Of a stretch of 64,000 bases of DNA, positions 8,388-64,000 are shown piece after piece. Origin of the DNA: Macrostomum lignano (Eukaryota); NCBI GenBank assembly GCA_002269645.1, contig NIVC01002787.1:76537-140536 (forward strand), given 5' to 3'. The notes beneath the pieces were generated by a model that did no database searches, had not been told where the DNA came from, and saw only the letters and a list, made by a program, of their open reading frames with translations. The position numbers were made by a program, and so were the translations under genes. The stretch's first letter is position 1. Each line of letters begins with the position of its first letter.

Positions 8388-8891
8388 TATTGGGTGCTAA
8401 GAATAAACCGCTTACATTTTCCCGGGCCATGCTAACGGCCCCTGACGCTTGAGTAGCGGTCCGCGCCGTGGATTCTGCCTTATAAACTTTCTTCTCGAAT
8501 CCCAATTCCCTATACCAAGTTTCATCTTAAACTCAACCTCCGCATCTTTGTGAACTTGCATGACCACTCTCATTACAGTGAGATCATAGGCCAGTTTGAC
8601 AGGGAACAGTTCTGGCTTAATCAGATCAGGTTTCTCAAAATGGCCTTTTTAGTAAAGACGTTTTCTAGAAAGTAATTGTAGGGATCCACACTTTGCGTGC
8701 TCACAGGGAATACCACAGGTTCTGTTGCTGCACCTTTTCATTTGTAATAAAACTTATTATTTGCTGCCGTCACATTGGGAACGTTTGACCAACCAGTGAA
8801 GTCGTTAAGATAGACATGGTAATTAGCACCTGGATCCAGGCGAATCGCCTGCTCTAATTTTTTAATAAATATCCCGTTTGAGTCATTAATT
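8388..8891 (-). pseudogene. mCP: P0: decayed fragment of family A minor capsid (penton) gene
   Basis: Aligns by eye to the P1 penton (about 14110-14620) with indels. Cut on the left by the Helitron and on the right by the PB terminus. Confidence 0.9.
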
Positions 8892-10011
8892 AGTAGAATG
8901 CATGAGACTACGTATTGTGCAGATAAGTGTCGATTTTGGAGGTGAGATGGGTGTCAGAGCCAATGCAAATTAAACGCCTATCTAAATACATTAGACCTCT
9001 TCTAATTGGTCCAGACCCTGTAAGTTATTATGTGAGACATTTATGCATGTAACTCTCATGTAAATCTAATTATACATGTAATCAGTGTGTCGTACAGAAG
9101 CGACGACCAGAACAGTACGCATAATTAGCGCTTCACTATAGCCGTTGTTGTACGCAGAAGCGCGCGCGCGCCCAGCCCCGCACAATGCAGCATTAGTGTA
9201 GCGCGCCCACCCATCCCATAACTGTCCATATTATTACTTTTCCATATTTACTGTCCATATATACACCCAAAATTAGTGTACGCGCAGAATTGTAGCGCCC
9301 GCCCACCCCATAGCTGTTCGATCATACCCAAAATTGGTGTACGCACAGAATTAGAGCCCACCCATCAAAGAAAATATTCTGTCGCCCCTCACAATTAATT
9401 GGCAGTCCCACGCGGAGGCATGATGAGTCAGTCAGCCAGTAAATCGCCGCTGTCCACCCCTCTGCCCTGCGCTGGCCGCTATAGCTACCAGCAGTGTTAC
9501 GCAACAACCCGTTTCTATGCATGAAATATTCTTGTTTAACAAGATGCCAAACCAATTTTCTTCAGACAGCAAACAATAAATAAGAAAATTCGGATTCTCG
9601 GCCGTTTATCTAAATTCACCTAGTTCAATTAACACCCCAATCATGTGGAAAACGCAGTGTTTGACAAGCAATTTTTGGTTGCCAAAGCACAAGAGGATCA
9701 GACCGCCAAAGCATGAACTGCCAACAACTTGGAGCAAGGATTTCAACCCACCTCCAACGCCAGCACCGAAAATAGGTAAAAAGGCTCATTTTTTCGCGAA
9801 TCCTAGATAACGACAACACCGTAAAAAGCTCGTTAACATGTAATTAAAACAAATACTTATTGAGACTCTCGGGTATATAAGCACCAACCTGGAGCACCAA
9901 GCACTCGTACCTGCAAATTTTTCTCGGATTCTCGGCAGTTTTCTAAATTCGCCAAGCTCAAATAACATCCCCACCACTAGTGCGAACAACGCAGCAAGTG
10001 CTTGACAAGAA

Positions 10012-10548
10012 ATGAGCTGGATTTCCAGAGACTACCCCCTATTATCGAACGAGGGAAAAGACGAATATGATGCCTTAAAAAAATCTGCTGACTGGTTGTG
10101 CATTTGCCACAGCAAACCGATTTTCGAGCGATTAGTCACCTTCAATGCCAAGGTCGAGGAAATTGATCAAGGCCCCTACGACAGCCAAGACTACGCAGCA
10201 GCCAGGATAAATGAGCAACTACGGGACAAAATGAGATTCAAAGCTGATTTAGCACGAATGGAGAGATTACTGGCTCCGATACTAAGTGAAGAGCATCGCC
10301 AACAAATACGTTTTCGGAACCATCAAGATCTGTATAATCCGTCGTGGGAGGAGCAACAAAAGATTTGGAATTTTTGGCTGCCAAAGCACAAGAGGAACAG
10401 GCCGCCAAAGCTTGAACTACCATCAACTTGGAGCAAGGATTTCAGCACACCTCCAACGCCAGCACCCGAGAATAGGAACAAAAGGTTCATTTTTTCCGGA
10501 ATCCCCGATAACGACAACCCTGTAAAAAGCTCGTTATCGTGTAATTAA
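10012..10548 (+). CDS. PB hypothetical protein, 178 aa
   Basis: Clean ORF with a TATA box (tatataa 9874-9880) upstream; its 3' part has a degenerate duplicate at 9670-9840. Confidence 0.65.
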   Translation: MSWISRDYPLLSNEGKDEYDALKKSADWLCICHSKPIFERLVTFNAKVEEIDQGPYDSQDYAAARINEQLRDKMRFKADLARMERLLAPILSEEHRQQIRFRNHQDLYNPSWEEQQKIWNFWLPKHKRNRPPKLELPSTWSKDFSTPPTPAPENRNKRFIFSGIPDNDNPVKSSLSCN

Positions 10549-10643
10549 AACAAAAACTTATTGAGACTCTCGGGTATATAAGCACCAGCCCGGATCATCT
10601 GCAAGCGCCCGTATCTGCAAATTTTTCTAAACAGACAAGAGAC

Positions 10644-11396
10644 ATGGAGACAGAGCAAGACTTCAACTGCGTCAAGCGAGAGCTGCTGGCACTCAAACCG
10701 CGAGGTCCGAGCTTCAACGGGGTTGAAACGTTTGACATTGAATATGACGAACAGGGACCTCTCTACTTGGCCAATGCGGTCCCTGTTTTGATCGTCAAGG
10801 GCGTGCGTACTGACAACGAAGGTCGCGAATTCATCATGATTGCACAAAAACACATTGAAAGCTGCATACCCTACGCTTTCAACACTGTGGCGGAGCACCT
10901 TGCCAGCGAAAGTCTAGCTCTGCTGGGCTACAACCCTGCGTTTGGAGGTGACAGTGCAGCGTTTGGGCTGGCTCACGACTTTAAAATGTACGACCAAAAT
11001 GTACTGCCTGTAGAGGATTACAAAAACAAGAGCGGCTATTACAGGATTCTGTTTACTCTCGACACGGCCGTGATTCGAGACGCTGTTTTGACCGCAATGC
11101 CAAAAATTCAACAGCTACAGTTTGTCGAAGAAACCAAACAGGCATTTGATCGTTGCTATTGGACGCCACCTCCAAAAATCAAGGTAGGCACCAAGAAAGT
11201 AAGCAAGAAAGCAAAGAACCCACCAAAGTTTGTCAAGGAGAAGCAGCCAAAGGTGCCTAAAAATCAGGCCAGAAAGCGACAGCATCAATCGAAAGTAGTA
11301 GCAGCCAACGAATCAAAGAAGCGGTCGAAAGCCCCCAAGAAGGATACGAAAGTAAAAACTGCCGAAAAATCTACTTGCAGAACGTCGAGTGTGTGA
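10644..11396 (+). CDS. PB hypothetical protein, 250 aa, Lys-rich C-terminal tail; possibly OB-fold ssDNA-binding
   Basis: ORF with TATA at 10575-10581; beta-rich core ending in ILFTLD...MPKIQQLQFV; basic tail. Confidence 0.7.
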   Translation: METEQDFNCVKRELLALKPRGPSFNGVETFDIEYDEQGPLYLANAVPVLIVKGVRTDNEGREFIMIAQKHIESCIPYAFNTVAEHLASESLALLGYNPAFGGDSAAFGLAHDFKMYDQNVLPVEDYKNKSGYYRILFTLDTAVIRDAVLTAMPKIQQLQFVEETKQAFDRCYWTPPPKIKVGTKKVSKKAKNPPKFVKEKQPKVPKNQARKRQHQSKVVAANESKKRSKAPKKDTKVKTAEKSTCRTSSV

Positions 11397-11944
11397 ACCT
11401 AGTGTTTTGCGCGAAATGGAGCCGCATGCCTGACTTGAACTGGGCGAGCGCACGGACATTTCGCAGACCAAGAGCTCTTATCAATTTGCGAATAGGAAAA
11501 TGTACAATCAACTTTTTTCAGCGTTCTTTGTCTGCAATTGTATTCGGTTGTCGCTCAGTCAACCAAGTTTTGCGTCTTTTTCCTCAATGTAAACCAATTT
11601 CTGTTGTTGTTACCACTAGTATTTACCGCGCTGAAGTAGACAGATGGCCAATTTTTTTTCCAAATTGCATACTTTGGGTCCCACTGGGTGAAGTGGGAGT
11701 GCGAAGTTTTCAATGGAATAGTAATAAAGTCTCCATTTCGCAATGCTAAATGTTTACTATGCGGAAAGAATGGCCGCATTTTTTTCCTTGGAATACGAAA
11801 CTTTAAAGAGCTCTGTCAAATGTACGATCATGTGACTAGCGTTTTGCATGTCTAATCCATGTAGCTGTTGCGTAACTTTATTGTTTTACCACTGTACTGA
11901 ATTTGTATGTACGTACAAGCTGCTATGAAATTGTCTATAAATAT

Positions 11945-12663
11945 AGTAGAAGGCATGAGGGGGCTTTTGGGACAAAATTTTTCACCTCCTCCATAATCCA
12001 CCTAAATCCATCCATATTATCCCTGACAGAATCAGAAAAAAGGGGGGGGGTCGCACCTGCTCACAAAACATCGTCCATAATCCCATTAAATCCATCCATA
12101 TTATCCCCGACAGAATCAGAAAAAAGGGGGGTCACACTTACTCCAAAAAACTTTGAACGTAATCCCAGTAAATCCATCCATATTATCCCCGACAGAATCA
12201 GAAAAAAGGGGGGGGGGTCGCACTCGCTCACAAAACGTCCTCCATAATCCCATTAAATCCATCCATATTATCCCTGACAGAATCAGAGCATTATCCCTGA
12301 CAGAATCAGAGCATAACAGGTGTCCACTAACACCTGTTATGCTCACTGACACAGACATAATCCACCAACATCCACCCATAGCATCTTCGAAACAATCAGA
12401 AAATAATCTGCATTCTTCTCCCCACATTCAATCCGAAGCGTTGAAACCAGATCCCTAAAACTTTAAATCCCCAAACCCAGGGTCCTTACCCTTTGAAAAA
12501 AAAATTAAATTCTCAATAAAAATGTTTCCAGTTGTCTCTCCAGGTTCTTATTATACTCAGCCTCATCCATTGTACAAATCCAAGTACCAATGCAGACTAG
12601 AATGCAGCGAATACATGAGAAAATATTGGCCCGACGTTGATATCAATGTCCCTAATATTAATC
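11945..12663 (+). repeat. P1 left TIR (partner 25897-26528)
   Basis: Inverted copies of each other; internal ~83-bp period repeats with core aaatccatccatattatccctgacagaatcaga. Confidence 0.9.
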
Positions 12664-12758
12664 AAGCACTTAAATCTCACTGGTTTGAAAAACACGGAGT
12701 AGTCATTAACAATTTTGACAGCTATTATAACTTTGCTGAAGTTATAAGGCAGTTATAG
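12522..12758 (+). CDS. Terminus-encoded microprotein, 78 aa (P1 left)
   Basis: MFPVVSPGSYY...CxxxC...YW...HWF...DSYYNF; homologous ORFs at 36519 and 57049. Confidence 0.75.
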   Translation: MFPVVSPGSYYTQPHPLYKSKYQCRLECSEYMRKYWPDVDINVPNINQALKSHWFEKHGVVINNFDSYYNFAEVIRQL

Positions 12759-12963
12759 TAGCCAACTACACTACAAGGTTGTACCCTGTAGAGTGCAGAC
12801 GCAAGATCTAAAAATACTGACAAAATCATGTGCAGCATAAAGCGGCTCGTATTTGTAAGCGATAGCTTACTGATAGTAAAGCTATTTGAACATGGCGCGA
12901 ATTCCTCACATGGTGGACTAGAAAATGTCGCCATGTGCAAGGCAAGGACTTGGTGCAAGGGCG

Positions 12964-13074
12964 TATAAATAGCAGTTCCACTCAGCTGGCTAGAGGTGGA
13001 GCCGACCTCGTGTGGCTATGACTGACTGACGAGGGCAAACAAGCCCGAAGTCTGCCCCGCATGGTTCGATTCCC
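12964..13074 (+). ncRNA. Putative Pol III-type small RNA cassette with hammerhead-like core
   Basis: TATAAAT 12964-12970, A-box-like tggctagaggtgg, CTGACGA-GGGC-loop-GCCC-GAA (13026-13049), perfect B-box GGTTCGATTCCC (13063-13074). Confidence 0.35.
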
Positions 13075-13081
13075 ACTGATA

Positions 13082-13417
13082 ACATGATTTTCACGAACGT
13101 TCGTAAAAATCATGTGCAGCATAAAGCGGCTCTCAGTGGTTACATGATTTTTACGAACTTTCGTAAAAAATCATGTGCAGCATAAAGCGGCTCTCAGTGG
13201 TTACATGATTTTTACGAACTTTCGTAAAAAATCATGTGCAGCATAAAGCGGCTCTCAGTGGTTACATGATTTTTACGAACTTTCGTAAAAATCATGTGCA
13301 GCATAAAGCGGCTCTAAGTGGTTACATGATTTTTACGAACGTTCGTAAAAATCATGTGCAGCATAAAGCGGCTCTCAGTGGTTACATGATTTTTACGAAC
13401 GTTCGTAAAAATCATGT
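13082..13417. repeat. Six tandem 60-bp units, each with a 34-bp palindrome
   Basis: acatgatttttacgaac|gttcgtaaaaatcatgt is a perfect palindrome in units 5 and 6 and near-perfect in the others. Confidence 0.97.
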
Positions 13418-13836
13418 GCATAACAGGAATTCGCACGAATTCAACTGTGCAAAATAGCATTTTTTCTGAGAAAGACTAATGCGCAGTTGGATTCGCGCCA
13501 TTTCCTGTCTTAACAGGAATTCGCACGAATTCAACTGTGCAAAAAAAAGCTTTTTTTTCTGAGAAAGACTAATGACAGACTTGTGTTTGTTATGTGCGAA
13601 TACTTGCGAAGTTAACCAACTTTTGACATAATAAAACAATAGACTGAGCACAGACTATCTTTTTGTGTCCGATTTCTTTTGTGTTTTCAATCCTTTCACT
13701 AAATACTGGTTAGAAAAAAAATAATGCTTGGTCAGTCCAAAAAGCGTGAGGTTGCCTACTAATAAGTAATATGACTAGAAAAAATATACTAAAAATTCGA
13801 AATAGAACTGAAATAAAATATTTAGTTATTTTAACA

Positions 13837-14699
13837 TCACATTCTCTCAATGATTAACGTCAATACAAACTCTTCACCGTTGAAATCAACACCCATCCCA
13901 TCTTCAGTCTCAAACTGTAGCACAATCTCGTGAATCTCCTTATTACTCAATACAACTCTTTTCACTGGATTTGGTTTCTCTACCACCATCTGTCCTCCAG
14001 CAACAGAGTTGGAGATGTTGTACAAAATATTAGTTCGCTTTCCCTTAAATACCCAATCAAGACTGAGATTGCTTCTGATTAGAATATTCAAACCCTTTAC
14101 AATGTCTGCAATATTGGGTGCTAAGAACAAACCGCTTACACTTTCCCGGACCATTCTAACAGTCCCCGATGCTTGAGTGGCGGTCCACTCCGCGGATTCT
14201 GCCTTATAAACTTTCTTCTCGAATCCCAGTTCCCTATACCAAGTGTCATCTTTAAACTCAACCTCCGCATCTTTGTGAACTTGCATGACCACTCTCATTA
14301 CAGTGAGATCATAGGTTAGTTTGACAGGGAACAGTTTCTTCTCTGGCTTACTCGCATCAGGTGTCTCAAAATGGCCTCTCTTAGTAAAGACATTTTCTAG
14401 AAAGTTATTGTAGGTATCCACACTTTGCGTGCTCACATGGAATACCACAGGGTCTGCTGCTGCACCTTTCCATTTGTAATAAAACTTATTATTTGCTGCC
14501 ATCACATTGGGAACGTTTGACCAACCAGTGAAGTCGTTAAGATAGACATGGTAATTAGCGCCTGGATCCAGGCGAATCGCCTGCTCTAATTTTTCAACAA
14601 ACATCCCGTTTGAGTCATTAATTCGCCAGTTATTGTAATAGGAATGCTCTCCTTGGAGTGTGAAACAATGTTGTTTAGTCTTTCGGCTATAGCTTCCAT
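13837..14699 (-). CDS. mCP: P1 minor capsid protein (penton), 1-nt frameshift near 14627
   Basis: C-terminal IHEIVLQFETEDGMGVDFNGEEFVLTLII fits the Polinton penton pattern; adjacent to MCP; intact copy at 56181-57044. Confidence 0.85.
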
Positions 14700-14719
14700 T
14701 TTTTGTCCTAAAAAAATAT

Positions 14720-16006
14720 TTAAACTTTACTGGATGAATTGTTGATCATGTTAAGCTTCACCTTCCTCTCAAATGCATAGATAATGTACAAGTCCACGGG
14801 TGTTGCGACAGTCCTCTCAATGTTAGTCACGATATTCACAGGGCTGTTATCAGTAGGCATTTGTCTGGCAGACACATCAGCGCCAAACATCGGATATAGA
14901 GTTCCATATTGAAGAGCAGTGATAGCAATTCCATTGTTCTCTTTCACAGCCAAGTCGACCAACTCGCTGTAAAATTTGCTAATCTTGTTCTGACTGAAAT
15001 CTCCATTTTGTGGCAGTGCAGGGTAAAGATTATCACTGATTTCATGCTGAATGGACCGCACGTCTCCATGCATGTAGCGTATAATGCTATTTGGGTTTCT
15101 CATGTTAATAATGATATACCTTGGATTGCTGCATGATCCCTCTTTAATGCAGATGTTTGTTCTAGTTTCGTTTCGCTCATCTCGACACATGTAGGCTGTG
15201 TATGCAACATCAATGTCCTTCTCTATTGCCTTGAGATAATCCGCTTTTAGTGCAGTCTTTGGCTCAATGACTTCCAAATACAGCTCGATTCCGGTTAGCT
15301 TCACCTCCATCCTTGTGTGGTCCGCCCCAGTCCACAACACTCTACTGCGATCATCTCTAGTCATCCTAAAGGTGTAGCTAAAGTTACTAGTCAGTCGATT
15401 AAATGTATTACAGAATCCACTCATGAATCTCAGTGGTACAAATACATCAACAGACCGATACAGCGGGTTCTTAGCAGCATCATCAGCACCTTGCAATGCA
15501 TAGTTGTATCTCTTCTTCCTCTTTTTATAGCCACTGTCATTGGTGTCTCCTTCTTTTTCATCTGCAATAAAACCCGCACCACTTCCCAACTGAATAAAAT
15601 CAGGATTCTCGATCAAACAATGAGCGTCATAGACAATTCCAAAGTTGGCGATTCGCTCCAACTCTGTGCTCCCATTCGATACACTAAACTCCTTGAACAT
15701 GTACGCCCAAAAGTTACTGATCAGAGCCACATCCGCATCATGCTTGTCAACGTTAGCACGAGCCGCATCCGCACCACCTTTTGTCTTGAATTGAAATGTC
15801 ATATGGAAGCCGCTCTTAAGACTGTGCACACTAACCAGAGACGAACATCCATTGTATGTAAATGTCAGTGTTTGGCCAGGACCAAGATTAGTTTCATTCT
15901 GATTTTCCTGACTGGGAACTCTTACCTGAGTCGCTTTGATTGTGCTATCATCACTCAAAATAGGCTTGTTAATTTTGTAGAAAACTGGTGTCAGTGGGTC
16001 GTTCAT
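14720..16006 (-). CDS. MCP: P1 major capsid protein (double jelly-roll type), 428 aa, intact
   Basis: Size, synteny with the penton, and C-terminal PRYIII and LYPMFGADVS motifs typical of Polinton MCPs. Confidence 0.85.
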   Translation of the reverse strand: MNDPLTPVFYKINKPILSDDSTIKATQVRVPSQENQNETNLGPGQTLTFTYNGCSSLVSVHSLKSGFHMTFQFKTKGGADAARANVDKHDADVALISNFWAYMFKEFSVSNGSTELERIANFGIVYDAHCLIENPDFIQLGSGAGFIADEKEGDTNDSGYKKRKKRYNYALQGADDAAKNPLYRSVDVFVPLRFMSGFCNTFNRLTSNFSYTFRMTRDDRSRVLWTGADHTRMEVKLTGIELYLEVIEPKTALKADYLKAIEKDIDVAYTAYMCRDERNETRTNICIKEGSCSNPRYIIINMRNPNSIIRYMHGDVRSIQHEISDNLYPALPQNGDFSQNKISKFYSELVDLAVKENNGIAITALQYGTLYPMFGADVSARQMPTDNSPVNIVTNIERTVATPVDLYIIYAFERKVKLNMINNSSSKV

Positions 16007-16036
16007 TTTTTAACTAAAAATAAAATAAAATAAGAA

Positions 16037-17241
16037 ATGAAGCGAAAAAGTACACAGCAGATATCTGAATTGGAGAAGCTAGCACAAGCAGAGAAACGAG
16101 TTACCGGGCTAATAAATAAGGAGCAACAATCCTACAATGAGTTTGTCCAAGCAGCCACAGAGTTTCATAAACCCGGGTATGGAGAAGCTAAGAAAAATAT
16201 TGATCAGGTTAAGAAACTATCGACGACATACAGGAAACCCAAGTGCAAAAGGTTTTGGGCAAAATTCCAGAAGCACCACAGATACAGCCGCAACCACAAC
16301 AACCACAACCACATCAGTCCCAAGTAAAAGTGACAGATAACATTTTTGGACCAGTAGAGCGTGTCGAACATGATGGGAAATATGTATTTGGAATAAGTAT
16401 GTGGAGAAAAAACATTTATAATGAACCAGTGGAATATTATATCGACATAAATAAGGAAAATATTTCTGTTGTCAAAGGCTCAGAAACAATGAAAATTCCT
16501 TTCACAGACACCTTACTGACTTTTATGACCAAGAACCAAGAGAAAATCTCCGAGAAGCAGCTAAAGAACTACAGAAATCTAGTGACTTTTTCTCTTGTTA
16601 GAGATATAGAAATACTAAAGGTCCCAGAAGTTCTGAAACACATGTACGATAGCGGTGTCAACCTGACTAAATTCAAAAAGTACAACACTTTAAACAATGG
16701 TTCGATTTGCCAGATCAGGCGGAAGTCATAAAATATCTAGAACAACAACAACAGCAACAACAACAACCACAACACAGCAACAACCACAACCACAGCAACA
16801 ACATTTTACAGAAGTACTCAGGCAACTGGAAAATGCAGATCCGACTCAAGTAGCTAAATATAAAAATGATCACCCAGATGCCTGGCAACACTTAGAACAA
16901 CACTCTCCAGATCGAATGAAAGAATCAAGCAAAGAGTTTTCACACCTCAACAAAGACAGGCACCGCATGACAGTTCCATCTCTGAAAGTGAGCAGTCTTT
17001 TGCATCACCTCCCCAGCAGCTACAAGCCCAACCAACTCCACAACCCAAGACCAACCGCCCTCAACAGGAAAAGGAATTTCTGAAATCTACAAGCGAGTAG
17101 CGGTTCTTCTAGGAGCGGCAAAGACCGGAATGAAAGATGAAAATAGAAAAGAATTTGTCAACATCCTGGACAAAATGATGGAAAAGAATATACTGACAAA
17201 GGGCGAGAGAGCTTCTGCTTTCGCGGTTCAACAAAAAATAA
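16037..17241 (+). CDS. P1 poly-Q putative core protein (several frameshifts)
   Basis: Fragments match the intact 403-aa ORF at 53630-54841; C-terminal GKG-I/M...KRxAVLLGAAKTG...EFVNILDKM motif seen in Polinton proteins. Confidence 0.75.
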
Positions 17242-17257
17242 TTTATTTCAAGTAAAA

Positions 17258-17647
17258 ATGCCGATTATTTTTGGGAAAGACGTGGACAAATACTATGACA
17301 AAAAGGAACTTAATCTCATTAAACGCGGATCTGGACTTTTCCCTGCAGGCCACTATCCAAGAAAAGAACGCTCAGGGAACGGTCTTGCTGATTTGATCGC
17401 TCAGGGGGCCAAGATTTTTAAGATCATTGGAGAGAACAAAGAGAACATCAAGAACGTTGCCGAAGCGGCTGGCAGTGTAGCCACAGCAGCCAAAAAGATA
17501 AAGGATACTGTAACACCTAAACAAGAGATTCAGCCTCCACTGGCCCCGCTGGCTCCATTGGCCCCAAATCCAGACAGTGTGGACCCTGCAGTCTATGACA
17601 AGATGAGAGCTAGCATTAAAAAAGGAAGTGGTTTCAAATTTGACTAA
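17258..17647 (+). CDS. P1 small basic protein with three GxG-hydrophobic motifs (putative core protein), 129 aa
   Basis: KRGSGLF, RSGNGLA, KKGSGF; conserved in P2 and P4. Confidence 0.8.
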   Translation: MPIIFGKDVDKYYDKKELNLIKRGSGLFPAGHYPRKERSGNGLADLIAQGAKIFKIIGENKENIKNVAEAAGSVATAAKKIKDTVTPKQEIQPPLAPLAPLAPNPDSVDPAVYDKMRASIKKGSGFKFD

Positions 17648-17690
17648 AGGGTACTTTCCGAGGGTACAAGAAATGTAAAGGTACAAGACT

Positions 17691-17794
17691 AGTCCCAAAA
17701 TGACACATCTAAGTCCCAAAATGACACATCTAAGTCCCAAAATGACACATCTAAGTCCCAAAATGACACATCTAAGTCCCAAAATGACACATCT
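17691..17794. repeat. 21-bp tandem repeat upstream of the ATPase (5 units; 6 units at 35814-35937 and 53064-53190)
   Basis: Unit agtcccaaaatgacacatcta. Confidence 0.95.
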
Positions 17795-17831
17795 TCTAAA
17801 TTATTTATTATTAAATTTCATCATAGAAAAA

Positions 17832-18632: not shown

Positions 18633-18648
18633 AATTTGCTATTAAAAG

Positions 18649-19381: not shown

Positions 19382-19491
19382 GCAGATTCAGAGACCTGTT
19401 GCCGTCACTGCAGACGAAGCAATCAACCGTAAAACAAATCTAACCACCACCAACTAGTTGCGGATTTTTTTTTTAAAAAATTCCCTAAAAA

Positions 19492-20142: not shown

Positions 20143-20146
20143 ACCC

Positions 20147-20547: not shown

Positions 20548-20600
20548 TTTTTTTGAGGTTTATTAAACTTTCTCTTAAACCTAAACCCAACCTCCACCTC

Positions 20601-52207: not shown

Positions 52208-52223
52208 CTTTTAATAGCAAATT

Positions 52224-53024: not shown

Positions 53025-53232
53025 TTTTTCTATGATGAAAAAAAAAATTAAATAATAAATAATTTAGATGTGTCATTTCGGGACTTAGATGTCTCATTTT
53101 GGGACTTAGATGTGTCATTTTGGTACTTAATTGTGTCATTTTGGGACTTAGATGTGTCATTTTGGGACTTAGATGTGTCATTTTGAGACTAGTCTTGTAC
53201 CTTTACATTTCTTGTACCCTCGGAAAGTACCT

Positions 53233-53613: not shown

Positions 53614-53629
53614 CTTTTTAAATAGAAAT

Positions 53630-54841
53630 TTATTTTTTGTTAAACCGTGAAAGCAAAAGTTCTCTTGCTCTTTTATCGATATATTTTCTCTCAAGCATTT
53701 TGTCCAGGATGTTGACAAATTCTTTTCTATTCTCGTCTTTCATTCCGGTCTTTGCCGCTCCTAGAAGAACAGCTAACCGCTTGTAGAATTCAGGCATGCC
53801 TTTTCCGGAAGAGCTTGGAGGTGATTCGAATGATTGGTCAGAGGAGGAACTGTCATGTGGCGCTTGTCTTTGTTGAGGTGTGAATACTCTGTCATTGATT
53901 CGCTTCATTCGTTCTGGGGAGAGCCGCTCTAATTGTCGCCAAGTATCAGGGTTCGTATCTTTGTACTGGGAAATCTCATTTGGCCCTGCTTTTTCAAGCG
54001 CTTCTAGTACTTGTTCGGGTGTGATTTGTTGCTGTGGCGGTGGAGGTTGTTGTGGTTGTGGTTGTGTTTGTGGTTGCTGTTGTGGTTGTTGTAGTTGTTG
54101 TTTTGGTTGCTGCTGTTGTGGTTGCTGCTGTTGTGGCTGTGGTTGTTGTGGTTGTTGTCTTATGACCTCTTCTTGATCCGGCAAACCAAACCATTGTTTA
54201 AAGTATTTGTATTTTCTAAACCTGTTCAAGTCAATCCTGTTTTCATGTAAAACTTTCAAAACACCGTTGTTCTTGAGAATGTCTATGTCCCTCTCTAAAG
54301 CGAAGGTAACCAGATCTCTATAATTCTTTAATTGCTTCTCGGATATTTTTTCCTGATTTTTAGTCATGTAGTCGAGTAAACTTTGAGTGAAGGGGATTCG
54401 TTTAGTTTCTGCGCCTTTATTAATTGAAATAGTTTCCTTCGTCACTTCAATGTTGTAATCCGCCGGTTCCCCGGTGATATTTTTTCGCCAGGCGCTAATT
54501 CCAAATATATATTTTCCATCATCCGTTACGGGGCCAAAAAAGTTATCCGTCACTTTCATCTGCACTGGTTGTCCTGGTTGCTGAGCCTGTGGTTGTCCCG
54601 GTGAAGATGGGATTTTACCCAATGTGTTTTGCAACTGGCTCTCTTGAATATCATCAATTGTTTCCTTCACAGTGTCGATGTTTTTCTTCGCTTCTGTGTA
54701 TCCAGGTTTGTGAAATTCGGTGGCTGCTTGGACGAATTCATTGTAAGATTGTTGTTCTTTGTTGATTAGTCCGGTAACTCGTTTCTCTGCTTGCGCCAGC
54801 TTTTCTAGTTCAGAGATATGATATGAACTTTTCCGCTTCAT
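53630..54841 (-). CDS. P4 poly-Q core-like protein, 403 aa, intact
   Basis: Long ORF divergent from MCP; Q/P tracts; SGKGMPEFYKRLAVLLGA C-terminal domain. Confidence 0.85.
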   Translation of the reverse strand: MKRKSSYHISELEKLAQAEKRVTGLINKEQQSYNEFVQAATEFHKPGYTEAKKNIDTVKETIDDIQESQLQNTLGKIPSSPGQPQAQQPGQPVQMKVTDNFFGPVTDDGKYIFGISAWRKNITGEPADYNIEVTKETISINKGAETKRIPFTQSLLDYMTKNQEKISEKQLKNYRDLVTFALERDIDILKNNGVLKVLHENRIDLNRFRKYKYFKQWFGLPDQEEVIRQQPQQPQPQQQQPQQQQPKQQLQQPQQQPQTQPQPQQPPPPQQQITPEQVLEALEKAGPNEISQYKDTNPDTWRQLERLSPERMKRINDRVFTPQQRQAPHDSSSSDQSFESPPSSSGKGMPEFYKRLAVLLGAAKTGMKDENRKEFVNILDKMLERKYIDKRARELLLSRFNKK

Positions 54842-54871
54842 TTCTTATTTTATTTTATTTTTAGTTAAAAA

Positions 54872-56158
54872 ATGAACGACCCACTGACACCAGTTTTCTA
54901 CAAAATTAACAAGCCTATTTTGAGTGATGATAGCACAATCAAAGCGACACAAGTTAGAGTTCCGAGTCACGAGAACCAGAATGAAACTAATTTGGGTCCA
55001 GGTCAAACACTGACATTTACATACAATGGATGTTCGTCTCTGGTTAGTGTGCACAGTCTTAAGAGCGGCTTCCATATGACATTTCAATTCAAGACAAAAG
55101 GTGGTGCGGATGCGGCTCGTGCTAACGTTGACAAGCATGATGCGGATGTGGCTCTGATCAGTAACTTTTGGGCGTACATGTTCAAGGAGTTTAGTGTATC
55201 GAATGGGAGCACTGAGTTGGAGCGAATCGCCAACTTTGGAATTGTCTATGACGCTCATTGTTTGATCGAGAATCCTGATTTTATTCAGTTGGGAAGTGGT
55301 GCGGGTTTTATCGCAGATGAAAAAGAAGGAGATATCAATGACAGTGGCTATAAAAAGAGGAAGAAGAGATACAACTATGCATTGCAAGGTGCTGATGATG
55401 CTGCTAAAAACCCGCTGTATCGGTCTGTTGATGTATTTGTACCACTGAGATTCATGAGTGGATTCTGTAATACATTTAATCGACTGACTAGTAACTTTAG
55501 CTACACCTTTAGGATGACTAGAGATGATCGCAGTAGAGTGTTGTGGACTGGGGCGGACCACACAAGGATGGAGGTGAAGCTAACCGGAATCGAGCTGTAT
55601 TTGGAAGTCATTGAGCCAAAGACTGCACTAAAAGCGGATTATCTTAAGGCAATAGAGAAGGACATTGATGTTGCATACACAGCCTACATGTGTCGAGATG
55701 AGCGAAACGAAACTAGAACAAATATCTGCATTAAAGAGGGATCATGCAGCAATCCAAGGTATATCATTATTAATATGAGAAACCCAAATAGCATCATACG
55801 CTACATGCATGGAGACGTGCGGTCCATTCAGCATGAAATCAGTGATAATCTTTACCCTGCACTGCCACAAAATGGAGATTTCAGTCAAAACAAGATTAGC
55901 AAATTTTACAGCGAGTTGGTCGACTTGGCTGTGAAAGAGAACAATGGAATTGCTATCACTGCTCTCCAATATGGAACTCTATATCCGATGTTTGGCGCTG
56001 ATGTGTCTGCCAGACAAATGCCTACTGATAACAGCCCTGTGAATATCGTGACTAACATTGAAAGGACTACCGCAACACCCGTGGACCTGTACATTATCTA
56101 TGCATTTGAGAGGAAGGTGAAGCTTAACATGATCAACAATTCATCCAGTAAAGTTTAA
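54872..56158 (+). CDS. MCP: P4 major capsid protein, 428 aa, intact
   Basis: Nearly identical to the P1 MCP. Confidence 0.85.
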   Translation: MNDPLTPVFYKINKPILSDDSTIKATQVRVPSHENQNETNLGPGQTLTFTYNGCSSLVSVHSLKSGFHMTFQFKTKGGADAARANVDKHDADVALISNFWAYMFKEFSVSNGSTELERIANFGIVYDAHCLIENPDFIQLGSGAGFIADEKEGDINDSGYKKRKKRYNYALQGADDAAKNPLYRSVDVFVPLRFMSGFCNTFNRLTSNFSYTFRMTRDDRSRVLWTGADHTRMEVKLTGIELYLEVIEPKTALKADYLKAIEKDIDVAYTAYMCRDERNETRTNICIKEGSCSNPRYIIINMRNPNSIIRYMHGDVRSIQHEISDNLYPALPQNGDFSQNKISKFYSELVDLAVKENNGIAITALQYGTLYPMFGADVSARQMPTDNSPVNIVTNIERTTATPVDLYIIYAFERKVKLNMINNSSSKV

Positions 56159-56180
56159 ATATTTTTTTGTGGGTGAAAAA

Positions 56181-57044
56181 ATGGAAGCCATAGCCGAAAG
56201 ACTAAACAACATTGTTTCACACTCTAAGGAGAGCATTCCTATTACAATAACCGGGCGAATTAATGACTCAAACGGGATGTTTGTTGAAAAATTAGAGCAG
56301 GCGATTCGCCTGGATCCAGGCGCTAATTACCATGTCTATCTTAACGACTTCACCGGTTGGTCAAACGTTCCTAATGTGATGGCAGCAAATAATAAGTTTT
56401 ATTACAAATGGAAAGGTGCAGCAGCAGACCCTGTGGTATTCCATGTGAGCACGCAAAGTGTGGATACCTACAATAACTTTCTAGAAAATGTCTTTACTAA
56501 GAGAGGCCATTTTGAGACACCTGATGCGAGTAAGCCAGAGAAGAAACTGTTCCCTGTCAAACTAACCTATGATCTCACTGTAATGAGAGTGGTCATGCAA
56601 GTTCACAAAAATGCGGAGGTTGAGTTTAAAGATGACACTTGGTATAGGGAACTAGGATTCGAGAAGAAAGTTTATAAGGCAGAATCCGCGGCGCAGACCG
56701 CCACTCAAGCATCGAGGACCGTTAAAATGGCCCGGGAAAATGTAAGCGGTTTGTTCTTAGCACCCAATATTGCAGACATTGTAAAGGGTTTGAATATTCT
56801 AATCAGAAGCAATCTCAGTCTTGATTGGGTATTTAAGGGAAAGCGAACGAATATTTTGTACAACATCTCCAACTCTGTTGCTGGAGGACAGATGGTGGTA
56901 GAGAAACCAAATCCAGTGAAAAGAGTTGTATTGAGTAATAAAGAGATTCACGAGATTGTGCTACAGTTTGAGACTGAAGATGGGATGGGCGTTGATTTTA
57001 ATGGGGAAGAGTTTGTATTGACGTTGATCATTGAAAGAATGTAA
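56181..57044 (+). CDS. mCP: P4 minor capsid protein, 287 aa, intact
   Basis: ATG in aaaaATGgaagcc context; penton-type C-terminus. Confidence 0.85.
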   Translation: MEAIAERLNNIVSHSKESIPITITGRINDSNGMFVEKLEQAIRLDPGANYHVYLNDFTGWSNVPNVMAANNKFYYKWKGAAADPVVFHVSTQSVDTYNNFLENVFTKRGHFETPDASKPEKKLFPVKLTYDLTVMRVVMQVHKNAEVEFKDDTWYRELGFEKKVYKAESAAQTATQASRTVKMARENVSGLFLAPNIADIVKGLNILIRSNLSLDWVFKGKRTNILYNISNSVAGGQMVVEKPNPVKRVVLSNKEIHEIVLQFETEDGMGVDFNGEEFVLTLIIERM

Positions 57045-57048
57045 GAAA

Positions 57049-57288
57049 TCACAATTGTCTAATGATTTCTACAAAGTTATAGTAGCTGTCGTAATCTTTT
57101 ACATAGGTTACTCCATACTTATGAAACCAGTGTCTTTGGAGAGCTAGATTAATATTAGGGACATTGATATCAACGTCGGGCCAATATTTTCTCATGTACT
57201 CGCTGCATTCTAGTTTGCATCGGTACTTACTCTTGTAATTAGGCTCGTGCGCTTTGTAATAAGAACCTGGAGAGACAACTGGAAACAT
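57049..57288 (-). CDS. Terminal microprotein, 79 aa (P4 right)
   Basis: Intact; tail-to-tail with the penton. Confidence 0.75.
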   Translation of the reverse strand: MFPVVSPGSYYKAHEPNYKSKYRCKLECSEYMRKYWPDVDINVPNINLALQRHWFHKYGVTYVKDYDSYYNFVEIIRQL

Positions 57289-58163
57289 TTTTAGAGAAAA
57301 TTTAATTTTTTTTCAAAGGGTAAGGACCCTGGGTTAGGGGATTTAAAGTTTTAGGGATCTGGTTTCGCCGCTTTGGATTGAATGTGGGCCCCATGGGGAG
57401 AAGAATGCAGATTATTTTCTGATTGTTTCGAAGATGCTATGGGTGGATGTCGGTGTCAGTGAGCATAACAGGTATCAGTTGACACCTGCTCTGATTCTGT
57501 CAGGGATAATATGGATGGATTTAATAGGATTATGGAGGATGTTTTGTGAGCAAGTGCGGCCCCTCCCCTTTTTCATGATTCTGTCAGGGATAATATGGAT
57601 GGATTTAGGTGGATTATGGAGGATGTTTTGTGAGCGAGTGCGACCCCCCTTTTTTTCTGATTCTGTCAGGGATAATATGGATGGATTTAATGGGATTATG
57701 TTCGAAGTTTTTGGGGTAAGTGCGACCCCCCTTTTTTTCTGATTCTGTCAGGGATAATATGGATGGATTTAGGTGGATTATGGAGGACGTGAAAAATTTT
57801 GTCCCAGAAGCCCCCTCATGTCTTCTACTGGCAGGTGTAATCAATTATTATTACTATTTACTTACGATAGGCATTCTGTCTTCTGCTGCATGCTATGTTG
57901 TTGCCACGTTGCTTACCACATGAAAAACTATAATAAACTAATAAACTATATAGCGACTATAATCTGTCGCTTCAGTCCTTCAGTTGTTTATCAATGTAAA
58001 CTGTTCAGCAGTCTTTCTAATTCTTTATTTGGTGCGTGCACAAAGGAAAGCACGCGTGGAACTTGTACATACGCAAAAGCTGCGCTCCCTCAGCAAATAG
58101 CAGTTACGCCACCCCTTTTCAAAATGCAGCTGTTGCGCTTGGCTGCGAATAATCCTTCCCAAC

Positions 58164-58652
58164 TCAAACGCCCCTCTCTACCCCCAACTCTTTCAGCAGT
58201 CTTCCTAATACCTCGTTTGGAGCACACAAAATAAACCCCGCTCCCGAGCACTCCGCGCACCCGCCCTCTCTTCCCAAACACCCACCCTCAGCGCCCACCC
58301 CCAACCCCAGCTTTTTCTTACCAAAAATAACCGCCTTGACTAATTTCCTAGCAATCGACTCACGAAATCCGCTTGAAATCCCCATATTGTCGAGTCTCCT
58401 GAGCATTTCTTTGTCCCAGCGATTCTTCTCCTCAGGAAAATCTCTATATTTAACGTCGTGCCACATGCAGACAGAGTCTAGCTCGTTCACAGGCTCATGC
58501 CCAGGATTTGGGTTGTCGTTACCATCCAGCTGTATTTCAAGTGGATTCAAAGGCCCGCAATATTTGTACCCGGGAACTGTCCAGCCTTTGTTTGGATGAG
58601 GAAGCTTTTCTATCAGTCCATGTGAATCTATTTTACCACCAGAGCGTTGCAT
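58164..58652 (-). CDS. P3 PLA2 protein, 162 aa
   Basis: PGYKYCGPLN, DSVCMWHDVKY. Confidence 0.92.
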   Translation of the reverse strand: MQRSGGKIDSHGLIEKLPHPNKGWTVPGYKYCGPLNPLEIQLDGNDNPNPGHEPVNELDSVCMWHDVKYRDFPEEKNRWDKEMLRRLDNMGISSGFRESIARKLVKAVIFGKKKLGLGVGAEGGCLGREGGCAECSGAGFILCAPNEVLGRLLKELGVERGV

Positions 58653-58682
58653 TATTTTATTTAAAATTTTATTTTTAAATAA

Positions 58683-59706
58683 ATGACAGATCAGAAACTA
58701 AAAAAACTCTACTACAGCGACAAAGGATTCTTTGTAGGCAAAAATGCCGTTAGTAAACTCATGGAGCTGAGTAAGGAACCAAAAGCTACAGTAGAAAAAT
58801 GGCTCTCTAAGCAGGCTGTCTTTCAAGTCTATTTCCCACCAGTAAAATTTGAAAGGCCCCATTTCAGTATTTATAAACCTAATGAGGCGCACCAAGCAGA
58901 TCTTCTGTTTCTCCCCAATGACTCAGGCTACAAGTATGCTCTTACAATTATTGACATTGCTTCCAGATATAAGGAAGCTCGCCCACTCAAGACGAAGAAG
59001 TCAGAGGTTGTTGCCAGCGCACTCCAAGATATTTATAAAAACTCACCCCTTAGTTACCCTGAAATCTTTATGACCGACCCGGGTAAGGAATTCATGGGTG
59101 CAGTCAAATCCCTTATGGAAAAAAATACAAAAATTCGCTATGGCAGAACAAACTTGCACAGAGACCAGGCTTTTGTGGATAGATTCAATTTAGCTCTAGC
59201 CAAGAGACTATTCACTAAGCAGACAGCTGAAGAACTCAAACTGAGTGCGGGGCAGTACTATAACAAGTGGACAGAAAGACTCCCCGCTGTTATAGAGCAA
59301 CTGAACAATGAAGTCACACGCTTGACTGGATTGAAACCATCCCATGCAATTAAACAAGACACTGTCGAACTTAAGCCATCTCATAGAACAGACAACAACA
59401 CTACAACCCCACACAACACACACAACACAAAACACACCTCGAACTACCCTAAGCTTCCAGGAGTTGAATCACCATACATACTGACAAACTCTGAGTTTCT
59501 ACGCTTTTTATATCTACCTGGAGAGCTACAGAAGGACACTAAAAGAAGAGCTACAGATCCATACTTCAGCCTTGATGTACATAAAAAAGACCTCCGACTC
59601 CGGTGACTATTACTTTTTATCCCAGGCCTTTAACCCTAAATCCCCCACGCGGTCATTCACTAGAGCTGAACTCCTAGTGATACCAGCTGACACAGAAATT
59701 AATTCA
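58683..59706 (+). CDS. INT: P3 DDE integrase, frameshift near 59590
   Basis: Homologue of 42474-43511; VERF reads VDRF at the third catalytic position. Confidence 0.93.
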
Positions 59707-59722
59707 AATATTAAAATATTAA

Positions 59723-60178
59723 ATGACAAAGATTGAAACCAGAACCATCAATAAACTCAATAAAATTATTCAATCAAAGAAACCAGGTCTTATATCAATT
59801 AAAGGTGCCAAAGTAAAAATCGATCCCGTGCAGCAAATAGTTCAATGTAATGAACAAAGACACAGCATCACAGATGAAAAGTCAGGAGGAATCCTACCAT
59901 TAGCAGCTCTTATCCTAATTATTGCAGGCGCTGTAAGTGCCGCAGGTGGTGTAGCTGGAGGTGTAGCAACTGCTGTTAAAGCTGGGAATGATAGAGCCCA
60001 CCAGCTAGAATTGCAAAAGATTGCAAGAGACAAAGGTACAACAATTAAGGCAGGAGATGGGTGCCCTGATTTTGATGATCATGATGATTGTAAGCATGAA
60101 AATTCTGTAAGCAAGTCTGACATTGTCAAAGCCATCATGACACTGCACAATGCTGGGTTTACAATAATGCGGATGTGA
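59723..60178 (+). CDS. P3 pX-like protein, 151 aa
   Basis: SGGILPLAALILIIAGAVSA. Confidence 0.75.
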   Translation: MTKIETRTINKLNKIIQSKKPGLISIKGAKVKIDPVQQIVQCNEQRHSITDEKSGGILPLAALILIIAGAVSAAGGVAGGVATAVKAGNDRAHQLELQKIARDKGTTIKAGDGCPDFDDHDDCKHENSVSKSDIVKAIMTLHNAGFTIMRM

Positions 60179-60313
60179 ATGCGGATGTGATGAGGTTTAA
60201 AACCCCACTTTATCCAGCTTCATAAACCTAATACTACTTATAGGATGTAGAAACAGTTCAACTTTTCTATCAGGGTGGTCACCCTCAAAATTTTTTTTAT
60301 ATTTTCGAGAAAA

Positions 60314-63300
60314 ATGCCAAAAGCTAATCCAGCAAGAGATTTAGTCAACAAATATTTTTCAAAAGGCGTCTCATTTCAAGACAAAAGTAATTCACTAAGA
60401 GAAGCATGCAAACAAAAGTTCAACACCGACCCTGGTCACCTGGGAAGCTATGAAAAACAGTTGGAAATCATCAAACAATTAGAATTCAACCAGTATGCGC
60501 CTATAAAAAGTCCTGCAAAGGAACACCAAGAGAGGAGTCGCAACTTAGTTAACAAATACGAAACTCTCACTGGTGAAAAAGCAAAGTACCCACAAAGTAA
60601 GCAGGAACAAGAGAAATTAGAGCAATTAATCCATTTAAAAGAGTCGGAGCTTGCCATTGAAGAGATTAATTTTGCACAGAGGAAGTTTACAGAACATCAC
60701 ATAGAGTACACAATCCCAATTAAGGATACCACCGCAAACATCTACGACTATAAAGACAGCATCCAATCAGTTGTTGATCACACACTCAAAACACGCAAGA
60801 CTTTTAAACTACAGATATCATTCAAGATTGCGTTTTATATGCCTGCGAAACCCACTGAGAATCTCGAGTATTACATGACAACAAAGGCAAAGCCATTCAC
60901 CCCTACAGACACACTGGATCCTTTCCTTCAAGATGTCAATAAGAAAATTGAAGCGTTTATATCCAGAGGTTCCAGATGGGTCGTAGGAGGGATTCAAAGA
61001 GCGACTGTCATGGTCATGAAATATGACCCACTTAAAGCCTCCTCTTATATAGAGCTCCAGCATAAGCTAGCCGGCAAAAAAGCTTGCATAAATGTTAAAA
61101 ATAAAGACAATTGCTGTGCACTATGGGCAGTTCTTTCTGCACTTCTTCATGATAGTGTCCTTCACCACCCCGAAAGAACCTCAAATTATCAAATTATTTC
61201 AACTACTATCTCATTGAATGCCGAAAAGAAGGGAATCAGGTTTGACAAAGGAGGCTTGGCGATCTCTCAGATCCCAAAGCTAGAAGAAGTGTTTAATAAC
61301 AAAATTAGAATCACAGTCTTTGAGTGGAGTGAAAAAACTGAGAAAGTTCAACCGGTCAGATGTAGCAAAGACGTTTTAGATCCTGAGGGGAAAAGGCGGA
61401 CTGAAGTGGATCTTCTAGTGATTGGTAATTTACTAGAGGAGGCTCACTATGTTTGGATTAAAGATCTTTCAAGACTCATTCACAAGCAGTTGAATAATCA
61501 TCACGAGGCTGTTGCCATCTGCCGCTTGTGCCTTAAGCATTACAGTGGGCCTGAGCGCTTTGAAAAACTAGCAGAGCATGAATTATCATGCGAGGATCAC
61601 CTGACCAACTGCTCTCTTCCTACAGCTGAAGAGAAGTATCTCCGGTTTAAGAACTATCACAAGATGGAGAAGCTCCCATTTGTTGTATTTGCTGATTTCG
61701 AATGCTCAATCATGCCAGAAACTCAAAAACAAACTCCAACTCAAAAACATATCCCCAATTCAGTAGCATATGCCTTTATTAATACAAAAGGACTTGTTGA
61801 GTATAATTATTTCTTTGGAGAGCAGTGTGTGGAGCAGTTTATTGCCAGAATGTTAGAGTTGCAAAAAGTGATTAGCACCCTTCAACCTGTTCCAATAAGT
61901 ATGTCTGAGGAGGATGAAAGCAATTTACTATCAGCAACTCATTGCCACATCTACAGGAAACATTTAACTTGCACTAATATTAAAAACCCCACCGTTAGGG
62001 ACCACTGCCACTTTACTGGGAAATTTAGAGGTGCAGCGCATAACACCTGTAATCTAAAGCTAAAATCGAACATTCATGATCTAACGATATTTTGTCACAA
62101 CGCAAAGAACTATGACATGCATTTAATAGTTGAAAAAATCGGCATGATTCCAGACATACACCTTGATTGCATCGCAGAGAACAAGGAGAAGTTTAAGTGT
62201 GTTGATATTAAACAGGATAATTTAGGTAAAGGTAAAATAAGACTGAAGGATTCATATCAATTTCTAGCTGCCAGTCTAGACGAACTAAGCAAGAATCTGA
62301 AAGATGAACAATGTACATATACAAAGATGTTTGCAAGTAAAATTAACAACACTGATGAATTATTTAAACTTTTAAGAAAGAAAGGCTTCTACCCCTATGA
62401 AGATATTACTGGGTATCACGTATTTGAAGATGGTTTACCACCACAGGAGAAGTTCTTTTCAAAGCTAACAGACTCTGGAATCTCTGACAAAGACTATGAG
62501 CACGCGAAGCATGTCTATAATTACTTTAATTGTCAAAACTTCTTCCAGTATCACCTGCTTCACGTCTACACAGATGTGTTTCTGCTGGCCGATGTGTTTG
62601 AAACCTTCAGATACACCTGGTACACAGCATATGGCCTCGATCCAGCACATTATGTGTCTCTGCCTGCCACTAGCTGGGAATCTTTGCTTAAAATGAAATG
62701 GGATCAAGATCCAGATTGGTACATTGAACTTCTTACAGACATTGACATGTACAATTTTGTCGAATCGTCAAAGCGAGGGGGAATCTCAATTGTGTTAACA
62801 GGTATGCAAAAGCAAACAATCCCTACATTGGATCTTACAATAAGGAGCAGCCCTCAAACTACATTACTTACTTGGACGCTAATAATCTCTACGGGTGGGC
62901 GATGAGTCAAGATCTTCCAGTTAGAGATTTTCGATGGCTACCCTCATCAGAATTCAAATGGGACTTTTCATTGGCTGCCATTTATGAGGTTGATGTTTAC
63001 ATTCCACCAGAGCTTCACGACTATTTCTCTGACTTTCCACCCTTCCCAGAGAACATCAAGTGCCCGAAAATAATCGAAACTCCCAATGATAATAATGGAA
63101 CTTGGCACCTGTCAGGAACAGAAAAAGAACATACAGAGAAGCTAACACAGAATCTAAACAACAAGACACGTTACAAAATTCATTACAAACTGCTTCAGTA
63201 TTTTATCTCACTTGGTTGCAGGGTCACCAAAGTTCACCGGGCTCTTACATTTACAGAGGAAGCGTGGATGAAACCCTACATTGATAAAAACCCAGTTTAG

Positions 63301-64000
63301 GACCAAAGCAACCAACGACTTTGACAAGAACCTCTTTAAGTTGGCCAACAACTCTGTCTATGGCAAGACTCTTGAGAATGAGCGGAAAAGAACAAACCTG
63401 AAACTTGTTACCTCATCAGAGCCTGCTATTATTCAGGCAAATATGTCAAAGCCAACATTCAAAGAACTCCATATCTTTAATAGCTACTTAGGTGTGATCA
63501 TATTTTACAAAACCAAGGTGACGCTGCGCAAGCCGATCTATACAGGTGTCACTGTTCTCGACGAATCAAAACGTCTGATGTACCAGTTCTTCTATGGCAT
63601 GAAGCAGCAGTACAAGGATAAAATGAAACTCTTGTACACTGACACAGACAGTTTTATTATGGACATTCAAACAGAAGACATTTATCAGGACATGCTGCAG
63701 CAAAAAGATTTGTTTGACTTGTCTGAGTATGATGAATATTGCAGGACACAGAATGGCGATCAAGTGTTTGACGCCACTAACAAGAAAGTGATTGGGAAAA
63801 TGAAGGACGAGATTGCTGGTGATATAATCACTGAATTCATTGGGTTGAGAGCAAAGTCCTATTTTGTAAAATGTGAGTCGTCAGACCCAATAAAAAATCA
63901 AAGGAATTCCGAAACGCGTCGTTAGGAAGGAAATTAATGAAGCTAATACAGAGACGCCTTGAATTGCAACAAAAAGACATCACATGAGTTCTCAAAGCTA
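60314..64000 (+). CDS. pPolB: P3 protein-primed PolB, incomplete at window end (frameshifts near 62790, 63290, 63900)
   Basis: MPKANPA start at 60314; all motifs through YTDTDS. Confidence 0.97.

Follow-up and report, generated by a model that had tools for sequence, protein, structure and literature searches.

The DNA stretch analysed here, 64,000 nucleotides of Macrostomum lignano (assembly GCA_002269645.1, contig NIVC01002787.1, positions 76,537 to 140,536; "the window" is this whole stretch), contains Polintons inserted into Polintons. Self-alignment of the window revealed four near-identical copies of one Polinton family, family A (P1 to P4), and one penton fragment (P0), and the self-alignment together with prints of the junctions served as the basis for the layer boundaries given in Table 1. 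A further layer, PB, belongs to another family, B1.

Nested elements in the window and their continuation

Family A encodes a protein-primed DNA polymerase, PolB (PF03175, E = 5e-18, 45694-47928), and, with matches above the cut-off, an rve integrase (PF00665, E = 7.5e-9) and an A32-type packaging ATPase (PF04665, E = 4e-6); the match of a putative double jelly-roll capsid protein to PF21738 (E = 3e-5 to 6e-5) is below the cut-off. A gene with a PLA2 domain and a gene for protein X lie on separate open reading frames (ORFs). No protease match was obtained among the 24 ORFs scanned, and the integrase gave no chromodomain match. The elements have long terminal inverted repeats (TIRs) with the AG..CT ends that are the rule for Polintons, and they make 6-bp duplications, seen in 59 duplication-matched junction pairs of the genome survey described below. 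Copies of the family differ in the arm beside one TIR (window positions 12760-13800, 36760-39250 and 40100-41950), where both ORFs and repeats differ; the arm of P1 carries five or more copies of a palindromic repeat of about 61 bp (13071-13574). The ATPase region of P3 is about 19 to 20% diverged from other family-A copies and its PolB about 1%, and therefore modules appear to have been swapped within family A.

All five target hexamers of the original prediction (TTAATT, AAATAT, ACAACG, CAGATG and GGCAGG) were confirmed at the junctions. The site of P1, which has both flanks and the duplication AAATAT in PB, is empty in 8 of 10 fetched PB-family copies, whose region is contiguous across 8907-11944 and 26529-27427. 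The PB gene interrupted by P2 at 27428 continues past ACAACG in 6 of the 9 loci checked, and the P3-type arm that holds P4 is uninterrupted in 13 of 14 loci. Because empty sites are seen in related copies, P1, P2 and P4 are true insertions. The placement of P3 in the P2 ATPase was also correct, with one junction at 36070 and the other on contig C2506. The nested stack is real. P4 had been placed in a short interspersed nuclear element (SINE) within P3; the insertion holds, and the SINE-like repeat proved to be standing cargo of the P3 subfamily, seen in the window at 36760-39534 and 57830-58040 and carried by 13 other loci, so Polintons of this subfamily would have moved with a retroelement on board. 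The head of this repeat (39254-39327) gave a weak Rfam tRNA match (E = 0.096, below the gathering score).

Table 1. Layers and inserts of the window, by position (C2506 is a second contig)
Feature	Position	Strand	Remarks
P0, penton fragment of an older family-A Polinton	8388..8891	-	left part missing; breaks after TTAATT, where intact copies continue
PA, 15-bp tip of a family-A terminal repeat, in P0	8892..8906	+	putative extra layer
PB, left part of a family-B1 element	8907..27427	+	P1 splits it and P2 ends it at 27427; two unknown and two further ORFs; end ACTACG
P1, family-A Polinton	11945..26528	+	both ends present; 6-bp duplication AAATAT on either side
P2, left part of a family-A Polinton	27428..36069	+	after ACAACG; its continuation lies on C2506, 13232 to 28470 or beyond
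Solo-long terminal repeat (LTR)-like insert in the P2 penton	28606..29477		TG..CA ends; 4-bp duplication ATAG
Gypsy-type retroelement in P2	30439..35115	-	Pfam reverse transcriptase (RT), RNase H, integrase, protease
P3, family-A Polinton	36070..64000	+	after CAGATG, inside the P2 ATPase; right end C2506:13231
SINE-like repeat, tRNA-headed	39254..39534	+	interrupted by P4; resumes at 57830
P4, family-A Polinton	39535..57829	+	both ends present; 6-bp duplication GGCAGG on either side
2.2-kb LTR-type insert in P4	49814..52031		TG..CA ends; 4-bp duplication CATG

Most of the integrase gene of P1 is deleted. The solo-LTR-like insert of P2 has a further copy on contig C166 (85%), and about 2 kb of P2 sequence is missing at the gypsy site, as seen from an alignment gap. 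The penton gene of P0 matches those of P1 and P4 at 92% and differs by 5.4 to 8.0% substitutions from the other four copies.

PB had been thought to contact P0 directly after TTAATT. The break at TTAATT was found; the direct contact was not, since 15 bp lie between the two elements. The PB family begins with ACTACG, which sets the start of PB at 8907 rather than 8892, and positions 8892-8906 match, in 15 of 15 bases, a variant of the family-A terminus that is present 162 times in the genome. A short-read contig (run X14) spans 8836-8945 and thereby the P0/PA/PB junction with no differences, the sole junction bridged among the pieces listed. It is likely, to judge from the terminal sequences, that a family-A element, PA, entered P0 and that PB then entered the tip of PA, the partner end of which was not found by pattern search. 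The joined PA/PB form looks local because it is absent from 30 PB-type and 30 AGTAGAAT-type ends; the idea that PB had captured family-A ends as a replication origin was rejected on the same counts (0/30 and 0/30).

The window ends, at 64000, with its contig. The right end of P3 followed by CAGATG and the rest of the ATPase, as predicted for the DNA to the right, occurs once in 764 Mb, at C2506:13225. The right TIR on C2506 differs from the left TIR of P3 by 4 substitutions in 698 bp, fewer than in any other pairing of the ten TIRs compared; both sides of P3 are closed. Beyond P3, P2 resumes with its ATPase, further ORFs and PolB, interrupted by three retro-type inserts. Immediately upstream of PolB in P2, a family-A element, P5, starts at C2506:28471, following GGGTGA; it is likely an additional layer within P2. 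At C2506:32081/32134, P5 adjoins a fragment of an older family-A copy (32134-38420) in the same orientation as P0. In the ATPase region the divergence of this fragment, 6.0 to 6.7%, resembles the penton divergence of P0 and compares with 1.6 to 3.8% among P1, P2 and P4; the fragment is probably the remainder of P0.

The right ends predicted for P2 (with ACAACG), PB and the TTAATT element did not turn up in pattern searches of the genome: there was none for PB or the TTAATT element, and for P2 there was no exact match and ten matches with one mismatch. PB-family sequence was also absent from the first 140 kb of C2506. These three outer right ends were probably lost by deletion, and a single deletion may have removed the right ends of P5, P2, PB and PA. 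Five Polinton-type junctions are seen directly and two more, those of PA and P5, would likely bring the total to seven. The nest is a tree, likely of up to six levels, with P1 and P5 as side branches; of the five successive Polinton-in-Polinton integrations first proposed, all five junctions stand and the single chain does not.

Probable retention at the locus and insertion elsewhere in the genome

The original prediction had offered homing to resident Polintons or a trap, selection-free or like a piRNA cluster, as the cause of the stack. In the genome, 349 termini of the commoner family-A type, 162 of the family-A variant and 151 ACTACG termini were counted. Outside the window and C2506, 252 of 341 commoner family-A termini were surveyed, giving 209 distinct junctions and about 150 insertions; of the other 89, 37 were skipped as partners and 52 lie on contigs 827-1938. 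In addition, 30 of the 162 variant termini and 30 family-B termini were sampled, most family-B flanks lying outside this sample. Junctions recurring on several contigs were collapsed before counting. Many junctions were present on two or three contigs, which would fit haplotype or polyploid redundancy; three subgenomes have been reported for M. lignano (PMC10733133) and would fit as well. The closest named PolB relatives also come from this flatworm, and the host is thus likely an animal amenable to laboratory work. The nesting count leaves out the window's own P4 junction (L333), a library overrun (L436), an unclear case (L439), two junctions with Polinton DNA 250 bp away (L302 and L348) and two nested junctions seen after the fact (C3589 and C273).

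Among the roughly 150 family-A insertions, five are clearly nested (three in family A, one in B1 and one in a B2-type arm, for which see below); one further nested insertion is doubtful, and one lies between a matched end pair in non-Polinton DNA. About one nested insertion is expected from the 0.65% of the assembly that Polintons of families A and B occupy (P = 0.003), and two if decayed copies double this share (P = 0.05). The comparison with random expectation gave five to six against about one, an excess of roughly 2.5- to 5-fold, and about 96% of the family-A insertions lie outside Polinton DNA. Clearly nested were also 1 of 30 variant family-A termini and 1 of 30 family-B termini. The six duplicated positions are unbiased in composition over the 209 junctions; the sole bias is A/T at the position 3 nt outside the duplication (174/209). 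Nesting is mildly enriched yet rare; general homing finds no support in these counts, and the stack described here is a local exception. At the genome-wide rate, 0.04 insertions would be expected in about 95 kb, and the probability of seven or more is about 3e-10 after window correction, a figure that overstates the case since the stretch was picked for its nesting and the insertions themselves make up its length. Other clusters of Polinton ends, some of them nested, are found at C1098:29332-34389, C273:132839-255079, C1391 and C157:54556-77045.

P2 received not only P3 and P5 but also the solo LTR, the gypsy element, a 600-bp insert showing a 15-bp duplication and two long non-LTR elements; the one non-LTR element scanned encodes endonuclease, RT and RNase H. 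For comparison, 44 of 62 adjacent family-A end pairs are no more than 18 kb apart. With five retroelements and two Polintons, P2 therefore looks like a site that retains anything. The two contigs, C2787 (that of the window) and C2506, also carry genes of further Polinton families (PolB, ATPase, integrase) as well as helitron, gypsy and RT genes, and tandem repeats reach 84% per 10 kb on C2506. We consider it fairly probable that the locus is a mobile-element graveyard, with retention in a neutral, repeat-rich site rather than homing or a mosaic assembly accounting for the stack; the trap half of the first proposal fares well with the five retroelements in P2, and the homing half mostly fails on the 96% that land elsewhere. 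An old family-A copy, P0, in repeat-rich DNA would have been a neutral target; each insertion would have enlarged the target and escaped purging in a gene-poor stretch; and a later deletion at C2506:32081/32134 would have fused P5 to the older family-A fragment, at the cost of the right ends of P5 itself and of P2, PB and PA. Part of the 2.5- to 5-fold genome-wide excess may stem from a weak preference for such chromatin, which would here be inseparable from survival.

Several observations count against retention, or against the layout on which it builds. The genome-wide nesting excess (P = 0.003 at a share of 0.65%) would also result from mild homing. Tandem repeats just left of the stack are at an ordinary level (22%, versus 18% in control flanks), and host-like ORFs lie nearby, namely those of a septin/AIG1-like GTPase, a methyltransferase and a protein with a stonustoxin-like domain. 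The PA stub could be a deletion product, and C273:236156 breaks at the identical 15th base. Only one of the four outer right ends is verified. Where the window and C2506 overlap, their identity reaches only 97.5%; of the informative sites there, 28 group the window with a third contig, C4494, 6 group it with C2506, and 22 are private to the window.

If the integrases preferred resident Polinton DNA or its chromatin, for instance via a reader of silencing marks, the nested excess outside this locus, the second likely stack at C1098 with several end clusters, and the weak chromodomain match of the B1 integrase (E = 0.005, below the cut-off) would be accounted for. Such regional homing is nevertheless unlikely: about 96% of sampled family-A insertions lie outside Polinton DNA, six of the seven junctions were made by family A, whose integrase has no detectable chromodomain, and retroelements, too, piled up in P2.

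Contig C4494 also carries the right junction of P4 and ends in a different flank, with the duplication TGCTGA. The differences between the window, C2506 and C4494 lie mostly at the two contig tips. C4494 and C2506 are near-identical at 11-14 kb and diverge after that; near 15 kb C4494 follows the element on contig C313, with 1 substitution in 499 positions versus 21 in 496 for C2506. The C313 element has the other arm type and no SINE match, and C313 was absent among the matches listed in one search with C4494:14300-15300. On the simplest reading, C4494 would be a mosaic that combines this locus with the C313 element, formed by an assembly join or by real ectopic recombination, and the window would continue into C2506. 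Transposition of P3 with P4 on board as a unit to a second locus was dropped, since C4494 passes into the sequence of the C313 element at about 14-15 kb. That the inner stack is itself an assembly mosaic, with P4 sitting in a P3-type copy elsewhere and joined in via the shared P3 arm, could draw on the different flank of C4494, on the stretch 58.4-61.5 kb, where the window resembles the start of C2506 less closely than C4494, and on the frequency with which contigs of this assembly end within these elements, but is improbable given that C4494 nearly equals C2506 at 11-14 kb before turning C313-like, which makes C4494 the mosaic, and that no second near-identical P3 left arm was found, the best others reaching 86 to 92%.

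Some neighbouring features deserve mention. A PolB gene of another family, with at least 55 loci, lies on C2787 76 kb left of the window (L018:612-2369); no capsid or integrase ORF is apparent in the 6.5 kb read around it, and the element ends were not found. An element of yet another Polinton family, at C2506:60226-77997, has PolB, ATPase and integrase genes and a pair of inverted repeats spaced by about 18 kb. An ORF with stonustoxin-like, MACPF and fibronectin matches adjoins a septin/AIG1-like GTPase ORF (L047:8073-9998 and L048:243-2039). Two methyltransferase ORFs of the FkbM type, the same in length and score, lie on opposite strands of C2787 (L017:7739-9013 and L013:502-1776), which suggests a large inverted duplication.

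The PB family and its putative polymerase-carrying companion

The family to which PB belongs, B1, is the more novel and more important result than the stack. Full B1 copies are mostly 8-14 kb and typically about 10 kb long, with long TIRs and ACTACG ends (AC..GT, not AG..CT), and the 6-bp duplications are perfect in 8 of the 9 copies for which both ends were printed. Their genes comprise an integrase, a penton-like ORF, a double jelly-roll capsid protein, and protease-like and ATPase-like ORFs. The rve integrase is present in 10 of 10 copies with a PF00665 match above the cut-off. The capsid model (predicted local distance difference test score, pLDDT, 83) has the capsid protein of PBCV-1 as its best match (E = 2e-18). 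The ATPase and protease are candidates, picked out by eye from a P-loop and protease-like motifs; their Pfam matches are weak or lacking, and no PDB sequence matched. A 250-residue ORF of PB had no Pfam or Atlas match. PolB was detected in 0 of 10 copies with four PolB queries, and a fifth query matched with its first 86 residues only, with stops, in 1 of the 10. PB had been taken for an ordinary Polinton, and this does not fit a family without the polymerase in 10 of 10 copies. Polintons are defined by polymerase and integrase together; PB, judged by its predicted genes, therefore falls outside the strict definition, yet it integrates in the manner of a Polinton.

Other ACTACG-ended elements, here called B2, do carry PolB, and P0019, a PF03175 polymerase, matches B2 ends at 88 to 100%. 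An example of 9.5 kb is located at C260:620886-630400, with PolB spanning 621660-626067; others are on contigs C157, C566, C1263, C1396 and C1945. The C260 copy, the only one whose gene content was read this fully, gave no integrase or capsid match in the 6.0 kb read, the other 3.5 kb lying within the PolB span. One B2 arm type carries a dUTPase. B2-type ends are flanked by perfect 6-bp duplications in 7 of 7 pairs, which would call for an integrase supplied from elsewhere.

Among 36 adjacent pairs of ACTACG termini, 11 enclose a capsid match, 6 a PolB match, none both and 19 neither, and when 78 capsid loci were compared with 75 PolB loci, no two were 20 kb or less apart, both match lists being lower bounds. 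B1 and B2 share the terminal 31 bp or so and differ after that inside the TIR; of 13 variants of an internal 8-mer in the shared end, seen among 31 ends, 3 occur in both classes. Relatives of B1 or B2 were not present in the viral or metagenome contigs searched. We give slightly better than even chances to a bipartite Polinton, in which B1 (10 kb), with integrase and capsid, would integrate and package and B2 (9.5-11 kb), with the polymerase, would replicate, both parts being dispersed. The two would then complement each other in trans.

PB and the PolB-carrying ACTACG elements might instead be separate deletion derivatives of a complete Polinton that was not seen, an alternative that concerns PB only. 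It has room in the 19 of 36 terminus pairs without a listed capsid or PolB match, a few of which are 14-34 kb long and unread, and in the 51 of 151 ACTACG termini outside the listing, together with the incompleteness of both match lists. The separation of the 78 capsid from the 75 PolB loci, however, the divergence of B1 and B2 TIRs after about 31 bp, unlike that of recent deletion products, and the many similar copies with intact duplications in both classes make this origin rather doubtful, and a bipartite element is preferred.

A sister capsid family with 87% identity has 12 identically scoring copies (for example C355:179808 and C2210:7883) and would therefore be very young. None was found within 20 kb of a listed PolB match, and this family may be a second split system.

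Comparison with known systems

Stacks of nested transposons in repeat-rich chromatin are familiar from the LTR nests of maize. As in such stacks, large elements would here serve as neutral landing sites and pile up, and later deletions would fuse neighbours; unlike in known stacks, most layers are Polintons, of one family, in likely six levels. Though unusually deep, the stack exemplifies a known process and does not indicate a new targeting mechanism. It also illustrates how a deletion can fuse Polinton copies, a proposed route to mosaic genomes. Tandem integration of polinton-type elements (bioRxiv 10.64898/2026.10.13.758929) and retrotransposons nested in Polinton-like viruses (PMC12220804) have been described. 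Our literature search found neither a Polinton-in-Polinton stack of this depth nor a bipartite Polinton, most subscription papers, Repbase and supplements being outside its scope.

Family A resembles Polintons/Mavericks (adintoviruses) in its PolB, rve integrase, A32-type ATPase and weak double jelly-roll capsid match, and in having a PLA2-domain gene and a protein X gene (PMC4028283, PMC8502044). Its long TIRs, AG..CT ends and 6-bp duplications are likewise those of Polintons. It is unlike them in having no protease match in the 24 ORFs, the cysteine protease being present in 74% of Polintons (PMC4028283), and in its PLA2-domain and protein X genes on separate ORFs. B1 departs from Polintons/Mavericks further, in its lack of PolB and its AC..GT ends.

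If the bipartite reading is true, a split pair with a shared 31-bp end would point to a minimal signal for replication and integration. B1 and B2 would then form a segmented, integrating, double-stranded DNA virus-like element and a model for the origin of segmented viruses, and such systems would escape surveys that require every core gene to lie within 20 kb (bioRxiv 10.1101/2023.08.22.554363).

An integrase and capsid module without PolB is shared by B1 with Tlr1, Polinton-like viruses and PolB-less insect polintons (PMC4028283, PMC11161782). Tlr1 carries its own helicase replicase (PMC4028283, PMC11161782), and in the insect variants PolB was lost or replaced by retroelement cargo (bioRxiv 10.1101/2025.02.07.637071); further sources for comparison are PMC11131425 and PMC8363768. 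What distinguishes B1 from Tlr1 and the insect variants is that no replicase was detected in it and that a PolB-only element with the same ends is its candidate partner. With such a partner, B1 would resemble the bidnaviruses (Bombyx mori bidensovirus), which consist of two linear parts with conserved termini, one of them with a polinton-derived PolB (PMC4061559). Bidnaviruses are single-stranded and have parvovirus-like capsids (PMC4061559), whereas B1 and B2 are integrated, and the part that lacks the polymerase carries the rve integrase and the double jelly-roll capsid.

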